IMG/VR virus record: IMGVR_UViG_2534682207_000010
Location: 12,441-76,440 of that record
Length of the DNA stretch: 64,000 bases
DNA from: a virus
Taxonomy: Duplodnaviria > Caudoviricetes
Direction: 5' to 3' (one strand)
The notes under the pieces are model-generated. The model did not search any database and had not been told where the DNA came from. It saw nothing but the letters and a program-made list of their open reading frames with translations. Below, in pieces: positions 36,681 to 62,479 of the stretch. The number at the start of each line of letters is the position of its first letter. Positions within the stretch are counted from its first letter, which is position 1. A program made the translations under genes and the position numbers.

Positions 36681-37136
36681 ATGCAAGCTTTGACAAGAGA
36701 GTATCTGGCAACTTATGTGTACCTGGAATCTGAAATCAAAAGAATTCGGGGCAGAATAAAATATTATGAAAATCATCCGGTTCAGCAACAGTATGGCATC
36801 GTAAAAGGCTCTATGAAGCAGTTTCCATTTACTGAATGTCATTTTGTGGTTTCTGGTCCAACTATAAAGTCGAACTTAGAACGGGAAAAAATGGTACGCC
36901 AGTTGATTATCGACCTCAAAGGTAATGAACAACTTTTTGAAGATATGAAATTAGATATTGAGACTTTTTTGGAAACACTACCTGCTGAGGATATTGAAAT
37001 TAAGCATATTTTAGGATTAAAGTATGTAGAACGCAAATCCGATGGAGAAATAGCGAAGAAATTGAATTATAGCAGGAGGACCATAGGACTTAAGATTGAT
37101 AAGTTTCTGAATGCGATTCAAAAAGAAAAGAAGTAG
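36681..37136 (+). CDS. late transcription activator (RinA/ArpU-like, sigma region 4 type HTH)
   Basis: C-terminal LKYVERKSDGEIAKKLNYSRRTI HTH; upstream of portal. Confidence 0.7.
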   Translation: MQALTREYLATYVYLESEIKRIRGRIKYYENHPVQQQYGIVKGSMKQFPFTECHFVVSGPTIKSNLEREKMVRQLIIDLKGNEQLFEDMKLDIETFLETLPAEDIEIKHILGLKYVERKSDGEIAKKLNYSRRTIGLKIDKFLNAIQKEKK

Positions 37137-37585
37137 CAATTTAACAGGTAAAACGAATACCAGTGATTTTAACAATTTGAAAAATTCAATTGTCATGGTC
37201 AATGTCACTGGATTTGCAATTGGTATTGACGGTAATAATGTTATAATCCAGTGGTTGACCGGAGTAAATAGAGAATTTGGCTATGCACTTAATATTAGCA
37301 CCACGGATGGTACAATGCAGTTCTTCTATCGTGAGAATGGTGCGTGGAAACCATCCTGGACCAAATAATCATTTTATCCATATTACGGAATCTGTTCCAG
37401 TTTTTCTGTCTCTGGATGCATATGTTATTCCATCGTTAGAGAATGTAAGTAAACGTGACCATTCTTCGTTAAAAATAAATTCCAGTGTTATCCCTTGGAG
37501 GTTTTCGTTTACAAAGATTATCATTTTCTGACAACGGGTGAACGTAAATGACCCAGTACCTAATTTACTAACTAAATTGCTACTT
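37131..37585. other. remote pair of silent tail-fibre C-terminal cassettes between inverted AAGTAGCAATTTA sites
   Basis: Sites 37131-37143 (+) and 37573-37585 (-); start-less frames 37132-37368 (+, 78 aa SSNLTGK...WKPSWTK) and 37584-37369 (-, 71 aa SSNLVSK...SVIWIK) meet stop-to-stop. Confidence 0.88.
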
Positions 37586-37590
37586 TATTC

Positions 37591-37633
37591 ATCTTTGCCA
37601 CAAATGCCACTTAGGATATGGTAAAATGGTATT
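37591..37633 (+). promoter_or_regulatory. putative late promoter, copy 1
   Basis: TTTGCCACAAATGCCAC direct repeat plus TG-TAAAAT; 39/43 identical to 57670-57712. Confidence 0.65.
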
Positions 37634-37772
37634 AGTAAAAAGTATGCGAGACATCCAAATTAAATTAAGGATGTTTGATATAACTATTAATATTGAAATA
37701 AATGCAAGCCGTTGAAGGATATAGAAAATCCTCCAACGGCCTTACTTTTTTGACAGAAGAGGGTAAAAGCTG

Positions 37773-39221
37773 ATGAACAGTAATAGCTTTATTGATTTAT
37801 GCCATGGACATTTTGGTAGAAAAATTGCATATACGAATGTCGATAGAATTACCAAAGAAAATGTTGTTGGTGTCGTTGGTAAGGCTATTTCAGTTCTGAA
37901 TTACAATCGACCGGCGATACGATATCTTTACGATTACTATAAGGGTGACCAGCCGATTCATTACCGTGAAAAGAAAGTGCGGCCTGACATCAATAACAAG
38001 ACTTGTGAGAATCACGCTCTTGAAATTGTCCGCTTTAGCACCAGTCAGACATATGGGGAGCCGATACAGTATGTCAGCCGAAAAACAGATAAAAAAATCA
38101 ATGATGCCGTGGATAAACTAAATGATTACATGAAGGACGCTCATCGGCAGGCCAGAGATATCAAGCTTGGAAATTTTCAGAGTGCCGTTGGAACTGCCTA
38201 CAAGGTAACGCTTAAAGGAAAGTCAACAGATATTGTTCCGTTCCGAATCCATATTCCGAATCCGCTGAATACGATTGTTGTGTATTCGGCCAAAGATGAT
38301 TCAGATATACTTTCCATTCAGGTATTGAAGGATGAAAAAGACGAACAGTATTATCAGTGCTATTCGGATGATTTATATTTCATCATCAAGGGCGGTAGAG
38401 TAATTGATTCTGGAATAAATGGTCTTGGCGGTATTCCGATTGTGGAGTATCCGAATAATCCGGACAGGCTCTCCGACATTGAAATTGTGATTACGCTTCT
38501 CGACCAGATTAACAAAATGCAGTCTGATAGGATGAATGGCATTGAGCAGTTTATTCAGGCATTTATGCTTTTTAAGAACTGTGAGATTGATGAGAAGAAG
38601 TTTTTACAGATGTGTGACCTTGGTGCTGTGGAGGTTAAAGATTCCGGTCAGGGAATGCAATCAGATGTAAAACTCATGACTGCTGAATTAAATCAGGAAC
38701 AGACACAGGTAGCCAAGGATGATGTGTACCGACAAGTACTTGTCGTTGAGGGTATGCCAGACCGACAGCAGAATACCGGCGGAGATACCGGACAGGCGGT
38801 TTACCTGCGGAATGGTTGGGATTTTGCGGAACAGCGGGCAAAACTGGATGAACCATTTACCATTGAGGCAGAGAAAAAACATGCCAGAATTGTTTTGAAT
38901 ATCATTAAGCAAACAACAAATGATGTTCCTCTGACAGTAAGAGACTTCGATGTGAAGATTACTCGAAATTCTACTGATAATATGCTGGTTAAGGCACAGG
39001 CGCTGGATTATTTACTGAAAAATAAGATTCATCCGCTGATTGCAATTACTGTATGCGGGCTGTTTGGTGACCCGGAAAAGGTTTGGACGCAGAGTAAGCC
39101 GTACATGGATACCATTTTCAAGACGCAGGAGCAACTTGATATTGAAGCTGAAAAAGAACGCACATTGGAACTTTTGAAAACAAAGCAAACTAAAACAGTT
39201 AAAACAGGAAGAGCCGAGTAG
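37773..39221 (+). CDS. portal protein (SPP1 gp6-like)
   Basis: LYDYYKGDQ, GEPIQY, IPIVEYPNN...SDIE, size 482 aa. Confidence 0.92.
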   Translation: MNSNSFIDLCHGHFGRKIAYTNVDRITKENVVGVVGKAISVLNYNRPAIRYLYDYYKGDQPIHYREKKVRPDINNKTCENHALEIVRFSTSQTYGEPIQYVSRKTDKKINDAVDKLNDYMKDAHRQARDIKLGNFQSAVGTAYKVTLKGKSTDIVPFRIHIPNPLNTIVVYSAKDDSDILSIQVLKDEKDEQYYQCYSDDLYFIIKGGRVIDSGINGLGGIPIVEYPNNPDRLSDIEIVITLLDQINKMQSDRMNGIEQFIQAFMLFKNCEIDEKKFLQMCDLGAVEVKDSGQGMQSDVKLMTAELNQEQTQVAKDDVYRQVLVVEGMPDRQQNTGGDTGQAVYLRNGWDFAEQRAKLDEPFTIEAEKKHARIVLNIIKQTTNDVPLTVRDFDVKITRNSTDNMLVKAQALDYLLKNKIHPLIAITVCGLFGDPEKVWTQSKPYMDTIFKTQEQLDIEAEKERTLELLKTKQTKTVKTGRAE

Positions 39222-39322
39222 GCTTTTCTTTTTTTATATCAAAATGGAGCCATCCGATAAATGGCAAAATCCAGCAGGAGCGACCTGCGTTATCAAAAGC
39301 GTGGATTAGAAAGGGGAATAAC

Positions 39323-39934
39323 ATGACAAGAGAACAGGCAAAGAAGAATCTGGTTGCGCTTGGCGTCGAGGAGCCTACTGATGAGCAGGTAACCAATTAC
39401 CTGAATCAGCACAATGGCGAAGTAAAGAAATATCAGGAAGACGCTGAAAAATGGAAAAAAGAAGCTGAAAAGGCGGAGGAGCTGCAAAGCAAACTTGATG
39501 GTCTTGAGCAGCAGAACCTTACCGAATTGGAAAAGGAGAAGAAAGCCAGAGAGGCAGCGGAAAAGAGAACGGCAGATTTACAGAAGCAGCTTACAACTTC
39601 TGCAGTCGAAGCGATTTTCGCAAAAGCAAACCTTTCCGGCGAGGAGTTTTCCGGGATGATTGGCGCATTATCCGGGCTTGATTTGGAGGCGGCAAAGACC
39701 AGCGCAGAATCTTTTGTCAATGGAATCTCCAAACGCGACGAAGCGAACAAGACCCAGTGGCAGAAAGAAACTTTTGACAAAACTCCGAATCCGGGGACCG
39801 GAGGCAAATCCGACCCGGCTGGAGGTGGAGAAGAAAAGAGTGCTGCCGCTGAATATGCGAAACAGTATTCGCAGGAACATAACCCACAGCCGACGGTAGG
39901 CAATCCGGTTTTGGCTGCCACAACAACATTTTAA
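39323..39934 (+). CDS. capsid scaffolding protein
   Basis: MTREQAKK N-terminus, coiled coil, position before capsid genes. Confidence 0.8.
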   Translation: MTREQAKKNLVALGVEEPTDEQVTNYLNQHNGEVKKYQEDAEKWKKEAEKAEELQSKLDGLEQQNLTELEKEKKAREAAEKRTADLQKQLTTSAVEAIFAKANLSGEEFSGMIGALSGLDLEAAKTSAESFVNGISKRDEANKTQWQKETFDKTPNPGTGGKSDPAGGGEEKSAAAEYAKQYSQEHNPQPTVGNPVLAATTTF

Positions 39935-39946
39935 GGAGGATATGAC

Positions 39947-40291
39947 ATGGCTTACATGAAAGTAGAGCAGGGATATAGCCTGCCAAATTTTTTGGAATCT
40001 GCCGTTGGCCTGGTTCAGAAAACCGAGATGGTTACCCAGGAGATGGCAACTACAGTTGACAACAAGAAGCTTATTTATGCTGGAACGGCATTCCCGTCTA
40101 ATGATTCCAAGGCAACTGGTATTGTATTTGAAACTGTTGATATGACTGACGATACAAATCGTCCAGCCAGCGTTATTAAAGCTGGAAGAATCTACGGAAA
40201 TAGATTAAAGACGCCGTTATCCAGCGAAGCCAAGACAGCTTTGGAGAAAAAAGGATTTGTAATTCTTGATGCTCCAGAATGTGAATTTTAA
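39947..40291 (+). CDS. head decoration / capsid-associated protein
   Basis: Position and size; AGTAFPSND..A.GIV pattern. Confidence 0.65.
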   Translation: MAYMKVEQGYSLPNFLESAVGLVQKTEMVTQEMATTVDNKKLIYAGTAFPSNDSKATGIVFETVDMTDDTNRPASVIKAGRIYGNRLKTPLSSEAKTALEKKGFVILDAPECEF

Positions 40292-40305
40292 TTGGAGGTG
40301 TAAAG

Positions 40306-41628
40306 ATGCCATTTAATGTATTGGATACAATTAATGTTACAGAGAGATTAAATTTTTCTCAGAACTTCGCCGTTGCAAGGCCAACCGTTCTGGATACCAT
40401 TTTCCCTGACGTGAAGACACAGCACTTCAAGGCTGAGTATTACCGGCTGATGCAGGGACAGAATTTGCCAACTCCTGCATTTGTGCATGCTCTGGATTCC
40501 GAGGCGCACATCGGTACCAGGCCGACTTTCGAGAAAGTTCTGACTGAGAAACTGTTTATCAAGGAGAAAATCAATCAGTCCGAGCAGTTGCAGATGTACA
40601 TCAACAATGGTGTACCAGATGATGATGGTCTGGTGAACTGGGTGTTTGACGATATGGGCAGATTGTCCGAGAGCGTTGTTACCCGTACCAAGATTGCCAA
40701 AGGTCAGGCAATGAGCCGTGGTGTAATGAAAATCAAGGAAAATAATCTGGATATGTTGATTGATTTTGGTGTACCTGCGGCTCATAAAATCACTTTTGGT
40801 GATTGGTCTAACCCAGAATATGATATCTTTGGCGATATCATGAAAGCAGTTAAAATGCTGAAAGATGAGGGGAAAATTCCGTCCAGAATGCTGACCTCTG
40901 ACACCCAGATTCAGCGAATGAGAAAAAATAAGGGCATCCAGTCCGCAATCTACGGAAACATCAATGCTGGAAGACTGGTTACCATGAATGAACTTCGGTC
41001 TATCATCATGGAGGAGTTCGGCCTTCAAATTGCTACCTGTGATGAAAGATATGCCTACATCAAGGCTGATGGTTCCAGAGTGAATGGTCGCTACTTCGAT
41101 GAGGACAAGGTTACCTTCTATACGGCGGATGTATCTGGTAGGGCCGGTACTGGTTTGTGGGGACCGACTCCGGAGGAGGCTGAGTATGCTGCATTCCAGG
41201 AAGCATTGCAGAAAATGTTTGTAACCGTGACCATGTGGGCGACCGAAGACCCTGTTGCAAAATGGACGAAAGCTTCTGGTATGTTTATCCCGGTCCTTCC
41301 GGACGTATATGGTATGGTAATCGCTACGGTTACTACTGCTGAGAACACTCTTGGCACTCTGACTGTGGAATCATCCGCCGGTTCTGCAAGCGGAGCAACG
41401 AAACTGACTGTTTCCCCGGCAAAGGCAAGCGGAAATTCATATAAGTATAAAATAGGTGATTCCGAAACCGCTGTTGTTTTCGGTCAGAATGTCCAGACCT
41501 GGACTGCATGGGATGGCTCTGCTGACATTACAGCGCAGACTGGAAAGACCATTACCGTAGTTGAGTGCGATTCAGCATACAAGGCTCTGAAAGCCGGTAG
41601 CGCAACGGTGACCGCAAAGGCAGGTTGA
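40306..41628 (+). CDS. major capsid protein (lambda E-like) with C-terminal Ig-like extension
   Basis: Position; LDTIFPDVKT, C-terminal Thr/Ser/Ala-rich beta domain. Confidence 0.85.
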   Translation: MPFNVLDTINVTERLNFSQNFAVARPTVLDTIFPDVKTQHFKAEYYRLMQGQNLPTPAFVHALDSEAHIGTRPTFEKVLTEKLFIKEKINQSEQLQMYINNGVPDDDGLVNWVFDDMGRLSESVVTRTKIAKGQAMSRGVMKIKENNLDMLIDFGVPAAHKITFGDWSNPEYDIFGDIMKAVKMLKDEGKIPSRMLTSDTQIQRMRKNKGIQSAIYGNINAGRLVTMNELRSIIMEEFGLQIATCDERYAYIKADGSRVNGRYFDEDKVTFYTADVSGRAGTGLWGPTPEEAEYAAFQEALQKMFVTVTMWATEDPVAKWTKASGMFIPVLPDVYGMVIATVTTAENTLGTLTVESSAGSASGATKLTVSPAKASGNSYKYKIGDSETAVVFGQNVQTWTAWDGSADITAQTGKTITVVECDSAYKALKAGSATVTAKAG

Positions 41629-41644
41629 TTGTGAGGTGAAATGA

Positions 41645-41965
41645 GTGGAAGCGGAGATTCTGGATGATGTAATTACATATCTTGGTGACGAGGTGGCCGA
41701 AAAAGATGTGTCGGTTCTGTCCATCTTAATCCAGAGAGCAATCCGAAAAGTATGTGCGAAACGGTATCCGTTTGGATACACGGACACGGAGAAAGAGACA
41801 GCGGTTGAGCGGTATCGTGATACGATATTTGCCGCCGCTGTTTACTATTGGGCGAAACAAGGGGCTGATGGTGAAAGTTCTCACAGCGAGAATGGAATCA
41901 GCCGAGCATATGAGAAAGAAGACGATATCTATTTTGATGTTGTCCCGATGGCAAAAATTTTCTGA
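41645..41965 (+). CDS. head-tail connector (SPP1 gp15-like)
   Basis: GADGESSHSENGISRAY motif. Confidence 0.85.
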   Translation: MEAEILDDVITYLGDEVAEKDVSVLSILIQRAIRKVCAKRYPFGYTDTEKETAVERYRDTIFAAAVYYWAKQGADGESSHSENGISRAYEKEDDIYFDVVPMAKIF

Positions 41966-42107
41966 ACCGTATGTAATTCCAAAAGTTGACTCTCCTTTTA
42001 AAAGACGGTGCGTGTCTGGCCGATACCTTCCCGGCCGGGCGCAGGGTGTGTGCTGTGAATGGTGGTGGGCAAGCGCACTTTTTTTTGTGGAGGTAGTGGA
42101 GGTAACG

Positions 42108-42722
42108 ATGAAGATATTTTTCGATACAGAGTTTACAGGATTACATAAAGACACAACGCTGATAAGTCTTGGTTGCGTGGCAGAGGACGGTAAGACATTT
42201 TATGCTGAGTTCACTGATTACGATGGAACTCAATGCAATAACTGGATTCGAGAAAATGTTATCCAGCATTTGATTGTTTCAAAAGACGGAATTGACAGGT
42301 GGGTGCATTATGCTTCTGAACAGTTAAAGTCCACAGAAGCGTGTGTCAGAACGAACGGATATTGCACGATTATGAGAGGAAATAGGGATTTGATTGCTGT
42401 TGAGTTAAGAGATTGGCTCAAGCAATTCGATTCTGTCCAGTTCATTTCTGACGTTTGCCATTATGATTTTGTCCTTCTGATTGACCTTTTCGGCACAGCG
42501 TTTGACCTGCCGGAGAACGTGTCGGCCAGTTGTCATGACATTAATCAGGATATTTCCCGGCATTATAGTATTTCTGAAAGAGAAGCCTTTGACAAGTCCA
42601 GAGAGGAAATTGTTGCGGAGTTGTGTTCTGGTGAGATTTCAGGCGTTAAGCACAATGCGCTGTATGACGCAAGAGTGATTAAAGCGATTTATGAGGAAAT
42701 TTGTGGAGGTAAAGAAGAATGA
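42108..42722 (+). CDS. DEDD 3'-5' exonuclease-like protein
   Basis: KIFFDTEFTG...LISLG, YDFVLL, KHNALYDA. Confidence 0.85.
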   Translation: MKIFFDTEFTGLHKDTTLISLGCVAEDGKTFYAEFTDYDGTQCNNWIRENVIQHLIVSKDGIDRWVHYASEQLKSTEACVRTNGYCTIMRGNRDLIAVELRDWLKQFDSVQFISDVCHYDFVLLIDLFGTAFDLPENVSASCHDINQDISRHYSISEREAFDKSREEIVAELCSGEISGVKHNALYDARVIKAIYEEICGGKEE

Positions 42723-43204
42723 TTTTTAAAGAAGCTTATGAGGCTCTGAAACAGGGCACAGATATAAAAAGACCATCATGGAAAGGTTTCTGGCGTAAAG
42801 AGAATGGCACGATTGTCATGTATTGCAAAGATGGTTCAAAGGTTCCATTCATGGAAACAGAATGTATCTTTGTTGATATCGACCACATGATGGCCGATGA
42901 TTGGGAAATTGTTGACGGGGATTCCATTACGGGACTTGACGTGTCCACTTTTACATTCGGCGAGGCAATATCTCGTATGAAGAGAGGAGAGCGTGTTGCC
43001 CGTAAGGGCTGGAATGGAAAAAATCAGTACATTCAGCTGGCAACTAATATCAGCTATATTGACGCAGAGGGAAACGCTGTGAATGTGGAGCATGAAGCAA
43101 TCGGAAATAAAGCCATTGCCTTTGTCGGAACGTCTGGAGTGCAGATGGGATGGCTTGCTTCACAGGCTGATATGCTGGCAGAGGACTGGAGGGTAGCGGA
43201 ATGA
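42719..43204 (+). CDS. DUF2829 (Tad2-like) protein, two-domain
   Basis: F.EA...LK.G...R..W twice; GWLASQADMLAEDW. Confidence 0.85.
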   Translation: MIFKEAYEALKQGTDIKRPSWKGFWRKENGTIVMYCKDGSKVPFMETECIFVDIDHMMADDWEIVDGDSITGLDVSTFTFGEAISRMKRGERVARKGWNGKNQYIQLATNISYIDAEGNAVNVEHEAIGNKAIAFVGTSGVQMGWLASQADMLAEDWRVAE

Positions 43205-43533
43205 ATTTTGGACAGGCATTTGAACAGGTAAAACAGGGTAAGGGCATGAGGCTGCCACAGTGGAAAGAGGATGTGGTTATCCGCTGTGCGTTTCCTCCGG
43301 ATATGAAGGATACTAGAGCGGGAATCGCCCATGCCATTTGTACGGATGTGTGTTTAGCACTTAATAAGGAATTAACAGAGGCGCAGGAAAGCACGATTCG
43401 CGCGGCGGTAAGAAATCGAATTGGCGAGCAAATGACAGCCCCATATCTTTATGTGGAGAGCCGCTTCGGGCGTGTGCCGTGGAAAGAGACCATGATTGAA
43501 CTGTTTTCCGAGGACTGGGAAGTGGTTGAGTAA
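43201..43533 (+). CDS. DUF2829 (Tad2-like) protein
   Basis: MNFGQAFEQVKQGKGMRLPQW...PWKETMIELFSEDWEVV. Confidence 0.75.
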   Translation: MNFGQAFEQVKQGKGMRLPQWKEDVVIRCAFPPDMKDTRAGIAHAICTDVCLALNKELTEAQESTIRAAVRNRIGEQMTAPYLYVESRFGRVPWKETMIELFSEDWEVVE

Positions 43534-43548
43534 TAAGGCGGTAGTGCT

Positions 43549-43986
43549 ATGAGAGGACTGAAACGCAATAAGCAAAAGATGTGGTATCAGCTCTATTCAG
43601 AACACATTCCGGTCTATGAGACAGACCTTGATGGTAACATCATCTATGACCCCGTGACCGGAGAACCACTTATAACGGGAGATTTTACCGTTGGATATGC
43701 TGACCCTGTGGAGTTTCGGGCGAATGTATCAGCCGCCAGAGGAGAAGCGAATACAGACCCATTCGGCGTTGATTTGGCGTATGACAAAACTGTTGCCACC
43801 TGTGACATGAATTTACCGATTGATGAATTGTCGGTGTTATTCGTGGATAAGAAGCCGGAATTTGGTGCAGATAGGAAGTTGACCAATAAGCCGGATTATA
43901 AGGTAGTCAAGGTCGCAAAGAGCCTTAATTCGGTGTTGTATGCGATTCGGAAAGTGACGGAGGGAAAGCAAAATGATTCGGCATGA
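43549..43986 (+). CDS. head closure / head-tail adaptor
   Basis: MRGLKRNKQKMWY...F.ANVSAARGEA...FG family; position. Confidence 0.7.
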   Translation: MRGLKRNKQKMWYQLYSEHIPVYETDLDGNIIYDPVTGEPLITGDFTVGYADPVEFRANVSAARGEANTDPFGVDLAYDKTVATCDMNLPIDELSVLFVDKKPEFGADRKLTNKPDYKVVKVAKSLNSVLYAIRKVTEGKQNDSA

Positions 43987-44242
43987 AACATATAGCTTTG
44001 ACCAGTGCAAAGTAACATTTAATAAGGATATTTATTCAGCCATTCTGGAACGAAGAGAAGGAAAAGAAGAACAATATCCAACAGTTCTACTGGATTATCG
44101 ACCGATAGGAGAAGACAGAGTTGATTTACGAACGATTCCTTGTATTTTGGAATTTAAGAATGAGAAAGCCATTGACGATTTGATTCGCGTTCTCAAGCAT
44201 CTGAAAGAAAGCTGGAAAGAGGCAGGGGAGACAAATGGCTAA
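43973..44242 (+). CDS. hypothetical protein
   Basis: Coupled ORF within neck genes. Confidence 0.6.
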   Translation: MIRHETYSFDQCKVTFNKDIYSAILERREGKEEQYPTVLLDYRPIGEDRVDLRTIPCILEFKNEKAIDDLIRVLKHLKESWKEAGETNG

Positions 44243-44765
44243 GAGAGTAATCCGAGGCGAACTATCCTCAAAAGGAATCCGGAGCATTATTGACCAGCTT
44301 CAGGACTACAAACAGGACTTGCACCGTAAGGTTGAATTGCTGTGTCAAAGACTGACAGAAGCCGGATTAACCGTGGCACAAGAGAAAGTTGGAGAGTCGC
44401 CGCTTGGTAAGACAATTTCCCTGCGGATTGATATGGAGCCGTCAAAGGCAGGAAGTAAGGCTATGCTGATTGCTTCTGGCCAGACGAAATCAAATGATTA
44501 TGGAACGGTTTCTACTTTACTTTTGGTTGAGTTTGGCGCGGGCGTATTCTACAATCCATCAGACAATCCGAAAGCTGGGGAAATGGGGTATGGAATCGGT
44601 ACTTTCCCCGGACAGATTCATGCCTTTGAAGATGGATGGTATTACTGGGGCGAAGATGAGAAGTGGCATTACACTCATGGCACAAAAGCCACAATGCCTA
44701 TGTATAACGCTTCGGTGGCTATCCGGGAGCAGGTAGTGGCGATTGCAAAGGAGGTGTTCGGATAA
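44235..44765 (+). CDS. tail completion / neck protein (HK97 gp10-like)
   Basis: LLVEFGAG...HGTKATMPMY pattern. Confidence 0.7.
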   Translation: MAKRVIRGELSSKGIRSIIDQLQDYKQDLHRKVELLCQRLTEAGLTVAQEKVGESPLGKTISLRIDMEPSKAGSKAMLIASGQTKSNDYGTVSTLLLVEFGAGVFYNPSDNPKAGEMGYGIGTFPGQIHAFEDGWYYWGEDEKWHYTHGTKATMPMYNASVAIREQVVAIAKEVFG

Positions 44766-45148
44766 TGCTTGACATTTCCTCACTGGTCTATTCCAGACTG
44801 ATAAACAACGAGCAGATGAAGAAATATCTGAAAGGTAGCGGTACAACTAAGAATGACACTCCATCGGCATTTCCGTATTTGTACATGAAAACATTGGGGG
44901 AGCCAACAACCAGTTCTTCCTTACAGAATAAGCAATGCGCCATACAAGCTGCTTTTGAGATTACTATTTATGATTCTACTTCAAGTACCAAAGCGAAGCA
45001 GCTAATCTTTCTGGCGGCTGACCTTATGCAGAAGATGGGATTTACAATGAATTACGGTCCGACTGAGATTGACCGTGCAAGTACAACAGAAGCATATCGC
45101 TGGATTGCAAGGTTTAAAAGAACCTATTGCGAGGGCGATTTGATATAG
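44765..45148 (+). CDS. tail terminator protein
   Basis: FPYLY...AAFEITIY pattern; position before tail tube. Confidence 0.7.
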   Translation: MLDISSLVYSRLINNEQMKKYLKGSGTTKNDTPSAFPYLYMKTLGEPTTSSSLQNKQCAIQAAFEITIYDSTSSTKAKQLIFLAADLMQKMGFTMNYGPTEIDRASTTEAYRWIARFKRTYCEGDLI

Positions 45149-45225
45149 CAACTACATAACCTTTGAGCCATGCAGGAAACTGTGTGGTTCTTTTTTTATT
45201 CCAAATTTTAAGGAGGATATGAACC

Positions 45226-45723
45226 ATGGGTAAAAATTTTATAGACCTTTCTACGGCAGGCATCCAGGTTGGATATGGGATTGAAGGGACGGCAGGCCAA
45301 AAACCATCAAAGTTTACCGACCTGCCAAACCCAAAGGCAATACCTGATTTCAATCCGGAAACAGCGACTTACGATGTTACGTCTCTGAACGACACAGTTT
45401 GGAAGCGTTACATTGATGGACTGAAAGACCCAGGTGGAGCGATTGCGATTACGTTCGGAATGTCTGATGGATTCCGAGAGATGTGGAAAGGTATTTGTAC
45501 CGAATACGAAAGTGCAAAAACATCTGGGAAACGCATGTGGATGGAATTTTTCCACCCTGGATTGACTGAGGCATTTTTCTTTACCTGTACTCCATCAAGT
45601 CTAGGATGGTCCGCAACTGATGTGGATAGTGCTTGGGACACCACGGTATCGGTAACACCAACTGGGGAAATTGGGTGGGCAGAGCCAATTAAGCCTACAC
45701 CAAAGGAACAGATTGGGGAATAA
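45226..45723 (+). CDS. major tail tube protein
   Basis: IPDFNPETATYDVTSL...YIDGLKDPGG. Confidence 0.85.
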   Translation: MGKNFIDLSTAGIQVGYGIEGTAGQKPSKFTDLPNPKAIPDFNPETATYDVTSLNDTVWKRYIDGLKDPGGAIAITFGMSDGFREMWKGICTEYESAKTSGKRMWMEFFHPGLTEAFFFTCTPSSLGWSATDVDSAWDTTVSVTPTGEIGWAEPIKPTPKEQIGE

Positions 45724-45740
45724 AGAAAACTGGGAGGTAA

Positions 45741-46271
45741 ATGAACATGAGAATTTTGACGATTGGCGGCAAGGAATATCAAATTGAATTTTCCTTTGAT
45801 GCGGCAGAGTATAAGGCTTGTGTGGACAAAGTTTTTAAAGTGGTTTCTGGCGGCTACATTATGAAGCGTGGAATCACTGAAAAAGATGGAAAGGCTGAAA
45901 TAGCAGAGGCGCTGACGGATAGCACAGCAGACATGTTTTCTGATATAGCGTCTTTATCAATTACATGCCTGTATGCAGGCCTTCTGGAAAATAATCCAGT
46001 TGAGGATGAAAAAGCCGCGAGACAGCTACTTAAACAGTTTGTAAAGGAAAATCCAGACGATGGCCGTGCATCTTATTTCGGAATGTATGAATTCTTGAAG
46101 GAATGCATGGAGGAAGATGGTTTTTTCAAATTGACCGGACTGGACAGGTATCTGAAGGACATGTCCGAATCAATGGCGAAGGCAATAAAGGAAGCAGAAA
46201 AGGAGACAGAACGGTCCACATTGCCGAAGGTTCCGACAGACCCAAAGAGGAAGTCAACTTCCACAAAATAA
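45741..46271 (+). CDS. tail assembly chaperone
   Basis: Position between tube and tape measure; slippery heptamer CCCAAAG at 46241-46247. Confidence 0.78.
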   Translation: MNMRILTIGGKEYQIEFSFDAAEYKACVDKVFKVVSGGYIMKRGITEKDGKAEIAEALTDSTADMFSDIASLSITCLYAGLLENNPVEDEKAARQLLKQFVKENPDDGRASYFGMYEFLKECMEEDGFFKLTGLDRYLKDMSESMAKAIKEAEKETERSTLPKVPTDPKRKSTSTK

Positions 46272-46630
46272 TTTGGGAGCATTATCTTCCGCTTGCGCTA
46301 AAAATAGGTGTCCCTTATGAATTGTTCTGGCACCTCAATCCAACAAAACTGATTCCGTTTATTAAAGCATATGGACAGAAACAGCAAGAGCGAAGTGATG
46401 AAATGTGGATGATGGGTCAGTTTGTTATGGCGGCATTAGATGCAACTGTATGTAACATGATGCCTTTCGTTAAACGCAAAGGAAAAGGAAAATACCCTGA
46501 AAAGCCATATCGGGTAATTCCTATGACGGAAGAAGAAAGGCGGCAGGAAGAAGATAAAGAATTGCAAAAATTCCTTGGTTTTGCGGATTCGTTTGAGAAA
46601 GATGTGAAAAAGAAAAATGAGGGCATGTAG
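46241..46630 (+). CDS. -1 frameshift extension of tail assembly chaperone (G-T type)
   Basis: -1 frame stays open to 46630 with FWHLNPTKL pattern. Confidence 0.65.
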   Translation, partial: PKEEVNFHKIIWEHYLPLALKIGVPYELFWHLNPTKLIPFIKAYGQKQQERSDEMWMMGQFVMAALDATVCNMMPFVKRKGKGKYPEKPYRVIPMTEEERRQEEDKELQKFLGFADSFEKDVKKKNEGM

Positions 46631-46742
46631 GTGTTACAGCCTATTTGCCTATTTTAACAACATAGTTTCCATAAATCAATAGGGCGAGTGACTAAAGCAG
46701 TTACCCGCCTTTTTTTATATGCAGAAAAGGTAGGTGAATATC

Positions 46743-49700
46743 ATGTCAGATGTAATTGATGATTTAAAAGTCCAAATAGACGCTAGTACGCAGAGCGCAG
46801 ATGCGAAATTGGATAAGTTCATTGCAAAGATGATGAAACTCCAGTCCACAATTACTGGTCTGGAAATGTCCAATGTAAGTAATATTGCTTCCGGAATTAA
46901 TCAGATATCGGCGTCCATTCAGAATTTTAATAACAGAACAAAGACGGCAGATTTTAGTAGAGTTGCTACTGGAATGAATAAACTGGCAACAGTAGATGCC
47001 CAGGGAGTTGCAGCGACAGCTCAGGCCATGTCCACATTTGCAGCTAATATGATGGGGCTTAATGATGTTCATGTGGATTCTGATGGGATTTCTAACATAG
47101 CCAATGCCATATCCAAACTAGGGCGGGCAACAGTGACAGAGGCGACGCAGAATTTGGAGTTTCTGAAAACCAGTATGAAAGATTTTATTACTGGAATGAA
47201 TGGTGCCGGAAGTTTAACTTTTGATGCGAATGGACTAGTATCGCTGGTAAATAGCGTGAGCCGACTTGGAAGCACAAATGCTACGCAGTCGGTCAAGAAT
47301 CTTCCGCAGATTTCCACAGCCTTAAGGGGATTCATTACGAGTATGAATACTGTTGGAAGTGTCGCGTTCGATTTTGCTGGGCTTAATAATCTTGTGAGCA
47401 ATATTACCAGATTAGGTGGTGCAAAAGCAACACAGGCCGCAACAAATCTGAAACCGATAAAGGACCAGATATTGAGATTCGTGAGTGGTTTGAATGGGAT
47501 AGGTTCACTTAGCTTTGATACAACCAGTCTGGCTAATCTTGTTTCTTCCATTACTAAACTGGGAGGCAAGGCGGCCACAACGGCGATTCCTAATATTCAG
47601 GCACTTGGTACGGCATTGACCCAATTAATGGCAACATTATCCCATGCACCAGCTGTAAGCCAAAATCTTATACAAATGACAACAGCTCTGGCTAACCTGG
47701 CCGGAAATGGTTCAAGGGTTAGCAGTGCATCGACGGCGATGTACCGAGGATTAAACTTATATTCCAGTAGCGCAAGTAGAGCGACCAAAGCTACAAAAGG
47801 TTTAGTTTCCCAAATTGGTATGTTCTATGCCAAGTGTTTCTTGCTGATTCGTGGAGCCAAAGCATTGTGGAAGGCCACAGAATCATCCATGGATTATATT
47901 GAGACATTGAATTATTTTGACGCTGCATGGGGGCAGGTCGCTGGGAATGCGGCAGGAGAGTGGAAGAAAGCTGGTTATGAGTCTGCTGAAGCTTATGCTA
48001 AATCTTTCAGTGAGAGAGCAAAAGCATTGACAGGTAAAATGACAGGATTTCAACCAGATGCATATGGGAATCTAATAGCAACTGGAATGCCCAGTCTTGG
48101 ATTGGACCCAGAAAAGCTTATGAATTATCAAGCTACTTTTGGTCAAATGGCATCCTCTATGGGTGTTGCTTCTGAAACTGCTTTGAAGTTATCCAATGCC
48201 CTTACTATGATTGGAGCGGATTTAGCTTCCGTAAAGAATCTTAAGTTTGAGGATGTATGGCAGGATATGGCATCTGGCATGGTCGGTATGAGCCGAACAT
48301 TGGATAAGTACGGTGTCAATATTCGTAATGTGAATCTGCAAGAGAAATTATATGAGTTAGGTATAGATGCTAAAATTGCAAAACTGGGACAGCAGGACAA
48401 GGCACTTTTACGGACTATTATTTTACTCCAATCTACTAAATATGCGTGGGGTGATATGGCTGATACGATAGGACAGCCAGCAAACCAGTTACGCCTGTTA
48501 CAGGCTAATTTTGCAAATTTGGCACGAACAATAGGTAACTTGCTTCTGCCTATAGTATCAAAAGTCCTTCCATACATAAACGCGCTGGTAATCGCCATAC
48601 AAAGGCTATTTTCTTGGATAGGCGGTTTGTTGGGAATAAAGATAGGTGGTTTTAGTTCTTCGGTTGGTTCTGCGGCTACGGATTTTGGGGATATGGAAGA
48701 TGCTGCTGACGGTATTGCAGATAGTACCGGTGATGCTGCAAAGAACACAAAGAAGATGGCAGACAACCTCCAGGAATTCGATACATTGAATGTTATTAAT
48801 TCGCAAAAAGATTCCGGTAGCGGTGGAAGTGGTTCTGGCGGAGGTGCTGGTGGCCTGTTGGATGATGCTTTCAATGATGCGTTTGCTGAATATCAGCTGG
48901 CATGGGATAAGGCATTTGCGAACATGGAGAACTCAGCCCAAGAATTAGCTGATAAAATCACGAGGGCATTTCAACGTATTTGGGAGGCCGCAGAACCAAC
49001 CAGGGAATCTTTAAAGAGACTTTGGAATGAAGGGCTTGCTCGTTTGGGAGATTTTACATGGACTGCTTTGAAAGATTTTTGGAGTGAATTTTTGGTTCCT
49101 GTAGGAAAATGGACGCTTGGAACCGGACTGCCTATGCTCGTTGACAATATAAATGCTTTTTTGATGAAGATTGATTTTCCGGCGATTAATGATGCTCTGC
49201 GGAACTTCTGGCAGGCCCTCACTCCTTTCGCAACAAAAGTGGGGGAAGGTCTTATTGAGTTTTTTGGAGATTTACTGTCTATAGGTGCAGACTTTATTAA
49301 CTTTACTGTCCCTAATGGTATAAACAGAGTAGCGGAGGCTCTAAGAAAGATTTCGCCAGATACAGCTGAAAAGATTGGATATGCTCTTGGCGTAGTTGCA
49401 ACCGGGATTATGGGATTTAAGACTATAGATGTTGCGGTTAAGGGTGTAAAAAATATCTATAGTCCATTGCAAAAACTTTTTAAGTTAGTAGGCCCCATGA
49501 AGTATGTTGCAATTGCAGGTGGGATTGCTGGGCTTGTCTTTGCACTAGATAAGTTCGGCGTGATTGATGTGAATTGGTCTGTTTTAGCTACAGGATTTAA
49601 AAATTTGGCATCAGCGCTTGGAAAGTTTGTTTCTGGTATTGGGCAGGGACTCATTAATTTCATTAAAGGGATTACCCCGATTGTATCTCCGACGCTCGAA

Positions 49701-52193: not shown

Positions 52194-52222
52194 TTGAAAA
52201 TCCCCTTTCTGCATGGTATAAT
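52194..52222 (+). promoter_or_regulatory. sigma-A type promoter of inserted island
   Basis: TTGAAA-17bp-TATAAT 30 nt before ATG 52252. Confidence 0.7.
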
Positions 52223-52251
52223 TTGAGTATCATAACAGGGAGGGGTTAAGC

Positions 52252-52821: not shown

Positions 52822-52871
52822 TCAGAATTCCGTGTCTGTGTAATGTATCTTTATTATACTAGGAGAATAAA

Positions 52872-53519: not shown

Positions 53520-53664
53520 ATAGCAAGTCGATGAAACGCAGTAAAATCAGCTCAAGCGGAATAAGGAAAAACACGCCGGGAAAATTATTGCAAGTCGCGA
53601 GCTTTTGTGATAATATATATAATTATCTCTAAAATTAATCGTTGAAGAAAGGAGCTGCCTAACC

Positions 53665-56826: not shown

Positions 56827-56898
56827 ATCAATATGACGTTGTATTTTGAAGAGGTTGCGAAGAAAGTAAAATAACTTTGAAATGAAAGTTAATATGCA

Positions 56899-56941
56899 AA
56901 AAAGTACCCACTCTGTTTATAATAGGGCGGGTACTTTTTTA
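56899..56941 (+). terminator. intrinsic terminator after RM gene
   Basis: AAAAAGTACCC...GGGTACTTTTTT. Confidence 0.7.
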
Positions 56942-56961
56942 ATCAAAAAGAGGGTTTAATT

Positions 56962-57554: not shown

Positions 57555-57593
57555 TAGTTCATTAAGGTAAGATAAATTGCGCCAATTGATTAA

Positions 57594-57665
57594 AGTAGCA
57601 ATATGCGTGATTACGCCGATGCTTGTTTCCGTTACTTAAGATATACAGGACTAATTTCTACATTA
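57594..57665 (+). pseudogene. possible short fragment of an AlwI-family restriction endonuclease gene
   Basis: Translates SSNMRDYADACFRYLRYTGLIS, a motif recalled from AlwI-family enzymes; unverified. Confidence 0.3.
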
Positions 57666-57669
57666 TTTT

Positions 57670-57712
57670 ATCTTTGCCACAAATGCCACCCTGGATATGT
57701 TAAAATGGTATT
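57670..57712 (+). promoter_or_regulatory. putative late promoter, copy 2
   Basis: 39/43 identical to 37591-37633; sits before distal tail genes, after the island. Confidence 0.65.
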
Positions 57713-57828
57713 GTTTAGAAGAATGTCATATTAAATAAGTTTCATAAGTTTAAAAGTGATAAAATCTATAGTGATAGAAATATGATAACACCTGGGTAAT
57801 CCTGGGTGTTTTTGTTTGCTAAGAGGGG

Positions 57829-58233
57829 ATGATTATGGCTTTTGAAGGATGGCTGTTAAAAATAAATGGAAAGACGTTCCCCACCAGACTTATTGCGGCT
57901 GAATCCCTAAAAATCACTCCAGACCAGATAATGGATTTAGACCCATATCGAGATGCGGATGGAGTATTGCATCGGACTGCGCTTCCACACACGGCTACCT
58001 CAATCGAATTCACAACAACTGCCTTGTATTTGAAAGATGCGGAAATACTTAATTCCTTCTTATCGCATGACAACAGGGTGAAATGTCAAGTTGAATATTG
58101 GAATCCTAATACGTCCTCGTATGCTTCGGGGGCGTTTTATATTGCTGATGTGCCATACGAATTTTATATGGTTGATGAAGAGAAAAATGAGATTTTGTAC
58201 AAGCCAATTAAGGTAACATTTACAGAATATTAG
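57829..58233 (+). CDS. distal tail protein (Dit-like)
   Basis: Position; D.DPYRDADG.LHR pattern. Confidence 0.72.
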   Translation: MIMAFEGWLLKINGKTFPTRLIAAESLKITPDQIMDLDPYRDADGVLHRTALPHTATSIEFTTTALYLKDAEILNSFLSHDNRVKCQVEYWNPNTSSYASGAFYIADVPYEFYMVDEEKNEILYKPIKVTFTEY

Positions 58234-58246
58234 GTGGTGATAATAG

Positions 58247-60307
58247 ATGCTGGATATTCCGGAGAGCATAAAGAGTTTATTTAAGTCTGACAATACAACA
58301 AATGATACACGGAGACATTTGAAATTGTATTTCTACAACAAAGATGTTCCCCTGTCTCCTTCTGGCGAGTTGCTTCCGATAGACCAAGAGCCGTGTTATG
58401 TGATAGACAATAAGCAGGTGCTTACCGAAGCATTGACAATCACTGAGAGCCTATGTGAAAGCGATGATTTGAAATTTGGAGAGTGTAATGCGGCGCAGTT
58501 TGAAATCACTGTGGCAGATGTATTGATTGACCTTTCCGGAAAAGAATTTATCTTCACCATTGAAGTTGGTGGATACGAAATGGCCATGGGGATTTATCGG
58601 GTAGAAAGTTTTGTGAGGTTGGAATCTGACCGCAGAAAAAAGAAAATCACCGCTTACAATCGAATGAGAAGATTTCAAACGGACGTTACTGCCTGGTATC
58701 AGGGCCTGAATTTCCCAATGACGCTGAAATCTCTCCGGGATTCATTGTGCGGTCATATCGGAATAGAGCAGGTTGACACGTCGCTCCCACTTGATAATAT
58801 GCTGATTTCAAAGACAATCAAGCCAGAGCAATTGAGCGGATTAAAAGTGTTGCAGGCCATTTGCGAAATTAATGGATGCTTCGGGCAGATAGATAAGACT
58901 GGGCGAGTGAAATATGTTTCGCTAGAAAATGCAAGTCTGTTTCCTTCCGAAGATTTATTTCCTGACGATAATTTATTCCCCTCCCAGATGTCACAAGGGG
59001 AGACACTATCTTTTTATAAACAGTCAGAAACCAGTTATGAAGATTATACAGTGAGGCCAATTGATAAAGTCCAAATACGTCAGGAAGAGGGCGATATTGG
59101 CGGTTGGTCACATGAGGAAGGTACAAATTGCTATGTGGTTCAAGGAAATTTTCTGGCATATGGAAAATCAAGCGAAGAATTAGATAGAATTGCGGATGTT
59201 ATCTATGACCAGATAAGTGGACGGTTGTACAGGCCGTGCAAAATAGTGAGCCCGGCGCTTCCTTGGGTTGAGGTGGGAGATGGTATTATCTGTTATACAA
59301 CAGATGATGTAATTGAAACCTATTGCCTAAAGCGGACGTTAAAGGGCATCCAGGGGATGATGGATACCTATGAGGCTCGCGGAAGCCTTGAGTTGAAAGA
59401 GAATACAGGCATACGTTCTGAGATTGTCCAGCTAGAGGGAAAAGCAGCTGTAATTAAAAAATCAGTCGAGGAAGTGTCTGTCAAAGTAACGGATTTAAAA
59501 GAATATGCTGAAGCTCAATTTAAAGTAACATCCAATGAAATTGCTGCTGAGGTTAAGCGAGCGCAGGAAGCTGAAACCTCTTTGTCGGTAAAAGCAAATG
59601 AAATAGCTCTGCGCGTTAGCGAGAAGGTTTCCAGGGGTGAAGTTACAAGTGAGCTGAATTCAGAATTAAAAATAACAGGCAATAAGATAGAATTGACCAC
59701 AGGGAATTTTGTCATTACTGCAAAAAATTTTACGGTTGATGAAAATGGTGATTCTGTTTTTTCGGGAAATATTAGCGGTGCCTCTTTTATTGGCGGCAAC
59801 ATCAATATTGGTAACGGGAAATTTAAGGTTAATTCATCTGGCATTGTTGAAGCCTCAGACGCTGTAATAAGAGCCGCGGCATTTAACTCAACAGGAATCA
59901 TTTATGCTGAGAAAGGGATTGAGTGCAATGGAGAAATAGAGGCTGGCACGGGGTCGTTTGGCGGTGTTAATGCGCGAGGGATATATTGTACTGGTACGGT
60001 GTATGGTAAGGATTGGCAGTATATTTCAGACGGAAGATGCAAGGAGAATATTCAAAAAATAAGCCCAGAGGAATGTTATGAAATAGTTTCCAGATTGCAA
60101 CCTGTAGCTTATAAGCTGATAGACTGTGATATACATGGCGTAGGATTTATAGCACAGGATGTCAAAACAGTATTGCGTGAATTAAATCTGGATTATGCAT
60201 TGGTTGGATACTACGAGAAAGAGGATATATATACGTTGCCATATGGAAACTATATAGCAATTCTCGCGGGAGCAATTCAGTATATAAATTTGAGGAAGGA
60301 TGAATAG
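58247..60307 (+). CDS. baseplate hub / tail spike with C-terminal peptidase S74 chaperone
   Basis: FGECNAAQF N-terminus; SDGRCKENI...LQPVAY...GFIAQDV. Confidence 0.85.
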   Translation: MLDIPESIKSLFKSDNTTNDTRRHLKLYFYNKDVPLSPSGELLPIDQEPCYVIDNKQVLTEALTITESLCESDDLKFGECNAAQFEITVADVLIDLSGKEFIFTIEVGGYEMAMGIYRVESFVRLESDRRKKKITAYNRMRRFQTDVTAWYQGLNFPMTLKSLRDSLCGHIGIEQVDTSLPLDNMLISKTIKPEQLSGLKVLQAICEINGCFGQIDKTGRVKYVSLENASLFPSEDLFPDDNLFPSQMSQGETLSFYKQSETSYEDYTVRPIDKVQIRQEEGDIGGWSHEEGTNCYVVQGNFLAYGKSSEELDRIADVIYDQISGRLYRPCKIVSPALPWVEVGDGIICYTTDDVIETYCLKRTLKGIQGMMDTYEARGSLELKENTGIRSEIVQLEGKAAVIKKSVEEVSVKVTDLKEYAEAQFKVTSNEIAAEVKRAQEAETSLSVKANEIALRVSEKVSRGEVTSELNSELKITGNKIELTTGNFVITAKNFTVDENGDSVFSGNISGASFIGGNINIGNGKFKVNSSGIVEASDAVIRAAAFNSTGIIYAEKGIECNGEIEAGTGSFGGVNARGIYCTGTVYGKDWQYISDGRCKENIQKISPEECYEIVSRLQPVAYKLIDCDIHGVGFIAQDVKTVLRELNLDYALVGYYEKEDIYTLPYGNYIAILAGAIQYINLRKDE

Positions 60308-60309
60308 AC

Positions 60310-60498
60310 ATGGAAAAACGAGACGAACTGATAGTGTACCGTAAAAGAGACATAGATAAAGTTGTTGGATTTATTGATAGCCTTGAATGCAAGGGAATTG
60401 CGGCGGCCCGGAAACTAGCACTGATTGCCAGCATCTTGGAAGCCGGAAAACCATTAAAGGAATATATTGAAGAAGAAAAGAAAGAGGGAGATGTGTAA
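60310..60498 (+). CDS. small tail-region protein
   Basis: Coupled ORF. Confidence 0.6.
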   Translation: MEKRDELIVYRKRDIDKVVGFIDSLECKGIAAARKLALIASILEAGKPLKEYIEEEKKEGDV

Positions 60499-61280
60499 TG
60501 GCATATAAACCGTTTTACCAGATAACGGATTGGCAGAACCTTCCAATTCAGAAAACGCCAATAAACAGGACAAACCTTCTCCATGTAGAAAACGGAATCA
60601 AGGAAGCCGATAACCGGATTATCCACCTTGATACTGAAAAACTAGAAAAATCGGAAGCAAATCTGATGGTTAAATCCGTTGTGGTTGATGCGGAAACTGG
60701 TGTGATTACGGTTACTCTGCTAAACGGTACGGTATATACATACGATTTGGACATTGAGCGTGTAGTTGTGAATTTTGACATAACGGATGACAATATCCTA
60801 ATCCTCACCTTGGCTGACGGGACTAAGAAACGGGTAGATTTGACAAGGTTTGTGTATAGCTTTTCAAATACAGCAACAATCACGATGAAGATGGTAAACA
60901 GGAAAGTTACTGCTGAAATCGTTGATGGTTCCGTTACCATGGCGAAGCTGGATGCATCTATCCAAAGTACGTTTTTGCAATATCTTTTGGATGCTGAGTC
61001 GGCTAGAGACCTTGCCTTGCAGTACCAGAAAAATGCAAAGCGATATGCTATCGGTGATGCTGAATTTGATGGAAGTGAGACAGATAATGCAGAATATTAC
61101 TGTGACCAATCTAAAAAATATTCCGAAATCGCACAAGAAGTTGCCGCAATCACTTATCCAAATGTATACGTGGATATTGGGAATGGACATTTGTTAGCTA
61201 TTGGTGGAAATAATTTTTATCTGTCATTAGATTCATCGGGGCATCTTATTTCTCAAATTGGAAGCGGGGAGACAGTATGA
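60498..61280 (+). CDS. tail/baseplate protein
   Basis: TPINRTNL..VENGI; DNAEYYC..SK pattern. Confidence 0.7.
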   Translation: MAYKPFYQITDWQNLPIQKTPINRTNLLHVENGIKEADNRIIHLDTEKLEKSEANLMVKSVVVDAETGVITVTLLNGTVYTYDLDIERVVVNFDITDDNILILTLADGTKKRVDLTRFVYSFSNTATITMKMVNRKVTAEIVDGSVTMAKLDASIQSTFLQYLLDAESARDLALQYQKNAKRYAIGDAEFDGSETDNAEYYCDQSKKYSEIAQEVAAITYPNVYVDIGNGHLLAIGGNNFYLSLDSSGHLISQIGSGETV

Positions 61281-61350
61281 TTGTAAAGATTGGTAAGGAT
61301 AGGACGGTTATCTGGGATGCAGAAACATTTGATTAGTGAGGTGACGTAAT

Positions 61351-62178
61351 ATGGCAGATTTAGGAAAAATAGCAGTGACAGATGGTGGGGATTATTCCGC
61401 CAGTACAACATATGAAAAATTGACCTTTGTACATTATCAGGGTGATACGTACATGACGCTAAAAACAGTGAAGGGTGTTACGCCTACAGATGATGGCGTG
61501 AACTACAAATTATTCTGCAAAAGCGCAGAGCTGGCAACAGCTTCTAAGGCCGGTATTGTCATGCCAGACGGCACAACAACTACCGTTAACAGCAGTGGAA
61601 AGATGAGTGCAAAACAGGCTACCCAATCTACCCCTGGCATTGTAAAAGGAAGTAACAGTATTAAGGTGGGAAGTGATGGCGCGATTGATGTCAATACGAC
61701 ATTCACTCAGGCTGCTAATTTGGCGAATATTATCACTGGAGAAGCAATTGCAACCATTTTAGGCAAGGTGTCTAAAGCTATCGCCACGACAATGAATTTG
61801 AATCAGAACGCATTATTGGAAAGTATGCTTACCAGCATTGATGTAAACGATTCTAGCAAGATTCCGACTGCGGCGTATATTCATACACTGGTTGAGCGGA
61901 TTGGAATGGGAACACAGTTGACCGCCGGAGCTAATTTGACGGAAGCGGCAAATAATTTAAGTAGCAATTTAGCAGCGGCCAACGCAAAGGTGACTTTAAA
62001 CGGCGTCAAGAACATTAATGGGTTTACAGCCGTATATTCCGACCGGACCGACCGGGCATTCCAGTTACAATATGATTCTGGCGAGATTGCATCAATCGCA
62101 TTTAACAACACCGGTATCTGGTATGATTTTTATGACGGTCAAAACTGGAAACAGGTTTGGAAGTTTTATAAGCCGTAA
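61351..62178 (+). CDS. tail fibre / receptor-binding protein with switchable C-terminus
   Basis: ATASKAGIV/ATQSTPGIVK fibre repeats; crossover site at 61959-61971 encodes SSNL, then a 72-aa variable tip. Confidence 0.82.
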   Translation: MADLGKIAVTDGGDYSASTTYEKLTFVHYQGDTYMTLKTVKGVTPTDDGVNYKLFCKSAELATASKAGIVMPDGTTTTVNSSGKMSAKQATQSTPGIVKGSNSIKVGSDGAIDVNTTFTQAANLANIITGEAIATILGKVSKAIATTMNLNQNALLESMLTSIDVNDSSKIPTAAYIHTLVERIGMGTQLTAGANLTEAANNLSSNLAAANAKVTLNGVKNINGFTAVYSDRTDRAFQLQYDSGEIASIAFNNTGIWYDFYDGQNWKQVWKFYKP

Positions 62179-62479
62179 TCATTTTGTGCTGAAGGCATGT
62201 AGGTTCGTAAGGATTGGAACTTGATTGTTATAACCAATAAATCGTACGGTATCACCTTTACGCACAGAAAACCATATAGGCATTGACGAATTGACTGTGA
62301 CATCATTATTGACCCAAAAAATATTTATCCCATTTATAAGTACATTACAACCCTGAGCTGAACTGTTAAAACCAATGGAACCACAAACTATACAATCATC
62401 TGTAGCTGTCCAACTGGTACCGTTAGCAAACCCATCTTTAATTTTTTTGCGGGTATCTATGTATGGTAAATTGCTACTT
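62179..62479 (-). other. silent alternative tail-fibre C-terminus (99 aa) behind inverted AAGTAGCAATTTA site
   Basis: Site 62467-62479 (-); frame SSNLPYIDTR...WFSVRKGDTVRF...AFSTK-stop abuts the fibre stop at 62178/62179; no start codon at the site. Confidence 0.88.

Follow-up and report, generated by a model that had tools for sequence, protein, structure and literature searches.

A dispersed, probably two-site system for the exchange of tail-fibre tips in a prophage of the Enterocloster clostridioformis group

In this work we ask how tail-fibre tips that a prophage stores far from its fibre gene could come to be used by that gene. The locus lies in a 64,000-nucleotide stretch of a Caudoviricetes virus (the window hereafter), which spans bases 12441-76440 of the 76-kb provirus record IMGVR_UViG_2534682207_000010; the record ends 1.5 kb past the fibre locus. 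Here a gene for a putative tail fibre or receptor-binding protein ends in one tip domain, a second tip lies behind it in the opposite orientation, and two more are found some 25 kb upstream. A reading of the window made from its letters alone (the sequence-only reading) had proposed that the head-tail operon, bracketed by these tips, is flipped as a block to give four host-range states. Our analysis of relatives points to a different answer, namely that the tips probably belong to a dispersed two-site cassette-exchange system, in which single tips and tip pairs pass between slots and between phage genomes. Homologues of the fibre at 93-96% are named from Enterocloster clostridioformis, and more distant relatives occur in Lacrimispora, Hungatella and Clostridium sp. 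genomes.

Two classes of site at the ends of each tip

Exactly four perfect copies of a 13-bp site, S1, are present in the window (Table 1), each where the sequence-only reading had placed it. At up to two mismatches the count rises to eight, compared with 2.9 expected, a number that none of 100 shuffled sequences attained. Every perfect copy opens the frame S-S-N-L into a different domain (A, 78 residues; B, 71; C, 72; D, 99), and these are arranged as two tail-to-tail pairs whose stop codons meet without a gap at 37368/37369 and 62178/62179. The fibre gene is fused to C alone, giving a protein of 275 residues, and the TAG stop codon of the activator gene (37134-36) falls within S1a. This anatomy, as first described, stands in full. 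An assembly artefact, which the sequence-only reading had named as a way in which it could fail, is ruled out, since a contig from an independent metagenome assembly (ERZ28578740 scaffold_489) matches both loci of the window at 99.98% identity.

That reading missed a decayed storage slot (57593-57663) and a second class of site, S2, found at both stop junctions (37363-74 and 62173-84). S2 is a conserved motif with arms AAA/TTT as in S1 but a different 6-bp spacer, TAATCA in the Enterocloster group and the palindrome TGATCA in the Lacrimispora group, where S1 has TAGCAA. With at most one mismatch it is present in 43 of 54 distinct tip pairs, related members of which are not fully independent; 2000 simulations assembled from real gene ends gave 4.8 on average and never more than 11. 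Where the two stop codons are at least 7 bases apart, so that neither needs the motif, it is retained in 21 of 24 pairs (2.3 after gap shuffling).

The two sites also delimit what is exchanged. In tips that have switched partners, homology extends from S1 and stops at the S2 spacer, and the TAA/TGA polarity of the pair is retained across such switches: tip B is found with three partners, all of opposite polarity, tip C with three, and two further families with three each. One same-polarity pair is frequent and has lost S2; it is the commonest pair and recurs unchanged, as would be expected if the loss of S2 prevents splitting. Within S1, base 3 stays with the flank and base 13 moves along with the tip, which places the crossover within bases 4-12, and in one relative (L071) both sites carry the same change at base 8. 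Arm symmetry and this co-variation of bases suggest that the exchanged spacer measures 6 bp. In L245 tip A has gone through a 232-bp deletion that joins S1 to S2 exactly in register, a single case that four bases of microhomology could also explain.

Variants of the sites were encountered in several relatives. A spacer variant containing G serves as the 5' site in L009 and L010 (L009:8612) and a quite different repeat in L027 and L075 (L027:5461), suggesting further specificity classes. In a lineage with an adjacent recombinase (L156, L092) the pair junction is a different, 8-bp palindrome, perhaps another class of S2.

Tips and tip pairs change place while gene order is kept

Inversion of a pair within its slot, which the sequence-only reading had anticipated, is visible in the assemblies. 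The expressed pair is found in both orientations among relatives (L055 versus L004, L008 and L062; L057 versus L060), and so is the silent A/B pair (A leads in L242, L244 and L256, B in L243, L246 and L260), whose tips are 100% identical to those of the window. For remote and expressed pairs alike, both orientations occur in many independent samples.

Remote tips are also found at the fibre, in agreement with the earlier expectation that it can use them. In L064 the fibre is fused to tip B (98.5% nucleotide identity; four contigs), and tip A, with a 100% identical tip protein, is fused to a constant region of the window type (95%) in P0242. In L266, a contig of P0242, the entire A/B pair lies between the fibre and the lysis-side flank, matching at 98.9% over 457 bp up to the S1 sites, while C/D occupies slot 2 and the operon is forward. 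In L263 and L264 the fibre locus holds B+C and slot 2 holds D+C, and the 99.5% identity of the two C copies indicates that a copy was gained. Intermolecular exchange, which the sequence-only reading had offered as its alternative to the operon flip, fits these data.

The storage slots themselves vary. In close relatives other tip pairs occupy the slot after the activator, and a third slot, the one decayed in the window, lies in front of the second promoter-like copy; relatives have full tip pairs there, and in the window the slot interior matches sequence from within a type II endonuclease gene. In distant relatives the number of slots is two to four, located past the activator, ahead of the portal, behind the tape measure gene or within the middle region. 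At least nine prophages, of two clades, have remote slots, and in some relatives slots are absent or replaced by defence genes. Since relatives keep their slots at such varied intergenic positions, the bracketing of the head-tail operon is one arrangement among several and not a constant feature.

The repertoire is likewise wider than the four tips first proposed, comprising an open pool of at least 17 families in the close clade. Two phages with a different fibre (G024 and G025), whose tail regions, as far as fetched, match the window nowhere but in the tips, share three whole tip pairs with this clade; most of their tip families are 94-100% identical to those of the clade, with D and a second B copy at 80-83%. 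The same motif joins tip A to N-termini of about nine clusters. Diverged tip copies are under purifying selection, with ratios of nonsynonymous to synonymous substitution rates of 0.11-0.18 in five families and 0.53 in A. One tip of the pool is an H-type lectin. Pfam and PHROG scans of the four window tips were blank save for one weak hit, and Atlas gave unnamed clusters for tip D and none for tip B. Single-sequence fold prediction was poor (predicted local distance difference test, pLDDT, 38); an eight-sequence model of tip B is beta-rich (pLDDT about 70-85) and has no fold match above background, its weak top match being a cyanophage tail fibre (E value 0.02). By gene position and analogy, the window tips are putative receptor-binding domains.

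A possible trace of an intermediate is provided by G013, in which one contig joins the fibre, a tip pair, the promoter-like element P1 and the portal. Up to the site this contig matches G002 at 99.93%, and its portal part is 98.4% identical to the window and 95.6% to G002. Either a crossover between two molecules at direct sites or a circle derived from a mosaic genome could account for this.

We propose that each tip is a start-less module carrying S1 at its 5' end (read S-N-L) and S2 over its stop codon, and that a slot holds two tips tail to tail, with one common S2, between inverted S1 sites. A single S1 x S1 crossover within a slot would invert the pair. Two crossovers would carry DNA between slots or phage genomes and leave gene order unchanged, S1 with S1 moving a whole pair and S1 with S2 moving one tip. 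The end products of such events are observed: both slots have undergone local inversion, breakpoints lie at S1 and S2, and pairs and single tips have moved between slots and phages with gene order kept. The route through two crossovers is proposed on the strength of these products. Its main intermediate would most likely be a cointegrate between replicating or sister copies, or between co-resident phages, which we favour because copies are gained as well as swapped; excision followed by re-integration, or a transient double inversion, could yield the same products. Slots remote from the fibre gene would serve as silent reservoirs, a tyrosine recombinase would require equal 6-bp spacers, and the activator gene would survive every swap because the left part of S1, with its stop codon, stays put. 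Tip exchange would in turn alter host range. A broader reading, on which we are evenly divided, is that natural recombinase-mediated cassette exchange is common to Lachnospiraceae phages: a phage tyrosine recombinase encoded at a distance would use two sites with common arms and different spacers to swap tips or pairs among slots, and among unrelated phages in one cell, on a within-population timescale.

Candidate enzyme and rival explanations

The gene at 15733-16755 is the only tyrosine recombinase of the 76-kb record (its only PF00589 match). Slot 1 is 20 kb away from it and the fibre 45 kb, and no tyrosine invertase flanks the cassettes. In eight other phage loci with the same S1, a tyrosine recombinase is encoded next to the array or inside it, at 30-34% identity to the window enzyme. 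In a phylogenetic tree one broad clade, separate from host Xer-like proteins and from integrases, unites the window enzyme, the cassette-adjacent recombinases and those encoded mid-genome by other site-bearing phages, and most site-bearing long records encode a member of it. We consider this gene the most likely source of the activity, with a probability somewhat better than even.

Two other candidates were set aside. The sole PF00239 match of the record is a 455-residue serine gene of integrase type at the record start, and a serine invertase was rejected, as this gene does not adjoin an invertible segment. It is unlikely that an invertase lies past the truncated right end of the record, since gene calls after the lysin in close relatives include none.

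Inversion of the 24-kb portal-to-fibre block as a single stable event, which would express tips A and B and so act as the four-state switch of the sequence-only reading, is very improbable. The geometry would permit it, through S1b x S1c or S1a x S1d, promoter-like elements lie inside the block, and two inversions in succession would swap the pairs too. However, in 14 of the 15 distinct places (44 of 45 contigs) the activator is followed by a forward-oriented portal, and in the remaining one an insertion sequence (IS) is inserted; tail genes are forward in every fusion of a remote tip, A or B, for which genomic context was fetched. No inverted head-tail block was found in any assembly or long relative examined, and flank-pattern scans for inverted junctions in viral contigs returned only already known records; these orientation data come from consensus assemblies, which hide minority states. 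A single inversion would also be expected to part the lysis-side genes from both promoter-like elements, and the flip accounts neither for duplicated tips nor for their sharing with unrelated phages. It is unlikely, if less so, that only the local pair is a regulated switch, with remote pairs docked by chance at S1-like sequence, rare tip moves through microhomology or RecT-type conversion, and S2 a compact two-way stop. The absence of slots or their replacement by defence genes in some relatives, the decay of slot 2 in the window, a putative RecT-like protein encoded by the prophage and duplicated tips that fit non-reciprocal copying would all agree with this. Against it, breakpoints are in register at S1 and S2 and not scattered, S2 persists between widely spaced stops, polarity is retained across partner switches, the silent remote pair itself occurs inverted, and remote slots recur across two clades.

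An explanation that rivals the enzyme step only, and that we hold possible though not the better bet, keeps the same anatomy and assigns the exchange to an outside enzyme, either the cassette-adjacent invertase of a co-resident phage (G024/G025 type) or a host recombinase such as XerC/D, with the 340-residue gene doing another job. G024 and G025 draw on the same tip pool and have an adjacent recombinase, the mid-genome recombinases of site-bearing phages differ greatly while S1 is constant, one complete provirus is without a candidate, and a 6-bp spacer is Xer geometry too. On the other side stand the inversion of remote and expressed pairs in many independent samples, the prevalence of the broad recombinase clade among site-bearing long records, the perfect S1 matches in five host genomes, which are few and mostly inside known prophage intervals, and a pattern search for a host dif site that remained at background.

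Several observations weigh against the two-site exchange that we favour, or against the enzyme assigned to it. About eight of the 54 pairs have no recognisable S2, and the conserved arms, at only 3-5 bp, are short by the standards of tyrosine recombinases. As a single contig, G013 could be an assembly chimera, and the window tips match no known receptor-binding family and have no clear fold match. The low identity of the window enzyme to cassette-adjacent recombinases (only 30-35%) is joined by the modest support for the broad clade (88 in the Shimodaira-Hasegawa-like approximate likelihood ratio test, SH-aLRT); its closer homologues lie mid-genome in many phages and not beside cassettes, Lacrimispora-group relatives with the same S1 encode a recombinase only 26-28% identical to it, and a complete 41-kb provirus with a tip pair has only an integrase-like tyrosine recombinase. 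Exchange, known here from assembled end products, may also be slow.

That fibre tips move between unrelated phages is an old observation, for which a defined mechanism has mostly been missing. With breakpoints, two site classes, a candidate enzyme and the culturable Enterocloster clostridioformis group in hand, the question becomes one for a plasmid assay. Two-site tips would let unrelated phages trade host-recognition parts, in which case the host range of a gut phage could not be read from its expressed fibre gene alone, and start-less stored tips escape gene callers. Two natural recombination sites that are compact and mutually exclusive may also serve as a tool for DNA exchange.

Features of the window and relation to known systems

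Table 1. Features of the window bearing on tip storage and expression (positions are those of the window).
Feature	Position	Strand	Remarks
Tyrosine recombinase	15733..16755	+	340 residues, SAM-like N-domain, catalytic R/K/H/R/H/Y intact; candidate enzyme, at a distance
Transcriptional regulator/activator gene	36681..37136	+	stop codon within left half of S1a
Site S1a	37131..37143	+	arms AAG/TTT, spacer TAGCAA; left boundary of storage slot 1
Stored tip A	37132..37368	+	78 residues; without own start in relatives' fusions
Site S2, slot 1	37363..37374	+	arms AAA/TTT, spacer TAATCA; overlaps both stop codons
Stored tip B	37369..37584	-	71 residues
Site S1b	37573..37585	-	right boundary of storage slot 1
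Promoter-like element P1	37586..37646	+	upstream of portal; putative function
Portal to tape-measure block	37773..52187	+	inverted form seen in no relative
Decayed storage slot 2	57593..57663		degenerate S1 at 57593-605 (+) and 57651-63 (-), about 45 bp between
Promoter-like element P2, P1 paralogue	57664..57725	+	upstream of DUF6711 / tail / fibre module
Constant N-terminal part, putative tail fibre / receptor-binding protein	61351..61958	+	about 203 residues
Site S1c, expression site within fibre gene	61959..61971	+	exact 13-bp match
Expressed tip C	61960..62178	+	72 residues
Site S2, expression slot	62173..62184	+	spacer TAATCA; left arm degenerate, CCG
Stored tip D	62179..62478	-	99 residues; 96.9% match in relatives' storage slot 2
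Site S1d, right boundary of expression slot	62467..62479	-	followed by terminator-like hairpin 62516-32 and lysis-side genes

Promoter consensus scans of the window, P1 included, gave nothing above shuffled sequence. Around slot 2, a 64-bp segment (57597-57660) matches the interior of a type II endonuclease gene of the relative L005 at 84% (E value 2e-13), and this match begins and ends at the two degenerate S1 copies; foreign DNA was possibly captured at pseudo-sites. An IS200/IS605-type transposase gene with hairpin ends (57046-57516) lies just upstream of the slot and elsewhere in relatives (L014), and in L261 (2951-4495) an IS256-family transposase within storage slot 1 truncates a tip. 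The region between the tape measure gene and P2 (52252-56826) is a variable defence island, which in the window encodes a methyltransferase-containing restriction-modification fusion of 1053 residues and in L004, L005 and L011 other restriction-modification or Lamassu-like genes. In several relatives defence cargo meets the fixed flank at the TAGC part of S1, a hint that this cargo, too, may use S1.

The module from DUF6711 to the fibre (57829-62178), which in the window follows the tape measure region and has its own promoter-like copy, comes directly after the activator in the Lacrimispora group (L017, L020-L026, L067-L077); module order may have changed through S1-type sites. Before the activator, a 946-residue gene in the terminase position (33821-36661) carries a LAGLIDADG/intein-like insert that is absent or elsewhere in relatives. 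In the middle region, a 40-bp element (family D1) occurs three times before ribosome-binding sites (10242-10281, 10618-10657 and 13402-13441), and these copies are possibly promoters or operators.

Among known systems, Gin of phage Mu, Cin of P1 and Min of p15B are adjacent serine invertases that act on longer sites at one local invertible region. The fibre C-terminus is likewise switched there by site-specific inversion (PMC6109161), as in the present case. Here, in contrast, no small serine invertase is adjacent, the only serine gene being of integrase type at one end of the record. Systems of the Gin type are further marked by a Fis-dependent enhancer and a 2-bp crossover core; the crossover in S1 is bounded to bases 4-12. 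Engineered recombinase-mediated cassette exchange employs heterospecific lox or FRT sites, with the same arms and different spacers, and a double crossover. The present system resembles it in its two sites with shared arms and unlike spacers, and differs in being natural. A literature search that had most subscription journals outside its reach found no natural case of cassette exchange in a phage fibre and no description of this site family or of dispersed slots.

The Rin shufflon is reported in Bifidobacterium prophages (Mavrich et al. 2018, PMC6109161) and in clade 1 prophages of Eggerthella lenta (PMC8778435), as one compact locus with one site class (11-bp or 8-bp rix) and an adjacent invertase (PMC6109161, PMC8778435). 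Like Rin, the system of the window joins the constant N-terminus of a putative receptor-binding protein to alternative C-termini of 70-120 residues at a short, asymmetric, in-frame site, with a tyrosine recombinase as the predicted enzyme, H-type lectin tips in both, and inversion between opposite sites visible in the assemblies. Unlike Rin, its slots lie 4-25 kb apart, two to four per prophage, a second site class has another spacer, the rix sequence differs, a recombinase gene is not found alongside, and tips pass from slot to slot and among unrelated phages. As it has neither an adjacent invertase nor a single locus with one site class, we do not file it as a member of Rin.

The pdif modules, described only in Acinetobacter, lie between inverse sites with 6-bp spacers, recombine where spacers are identical and follow an alternation rule; they have host XerC/XerD boxes, carry whole genes between plasmids, and are proposed to move singly or in pairs by cointegrate formation and resolution at a second site pair (PMC13141974). 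The layout S1-tip-S2-tip-S1, the inverse sites, the probable 6-bp spacer and the retained polarity all recall pdif. The cargo here is, in contrast, an in-frame protein domain, the carriers are phages, there are two fixed spacer classes, and the S1 arms appear unlike those of dif. One hybrid junction (the single contig G013) and duplicated tips may be traces of a cointegrate in the pdif style. The system works like a Rin shufflon, and in its logic is closest to the pdif modules of Acinetobacter.

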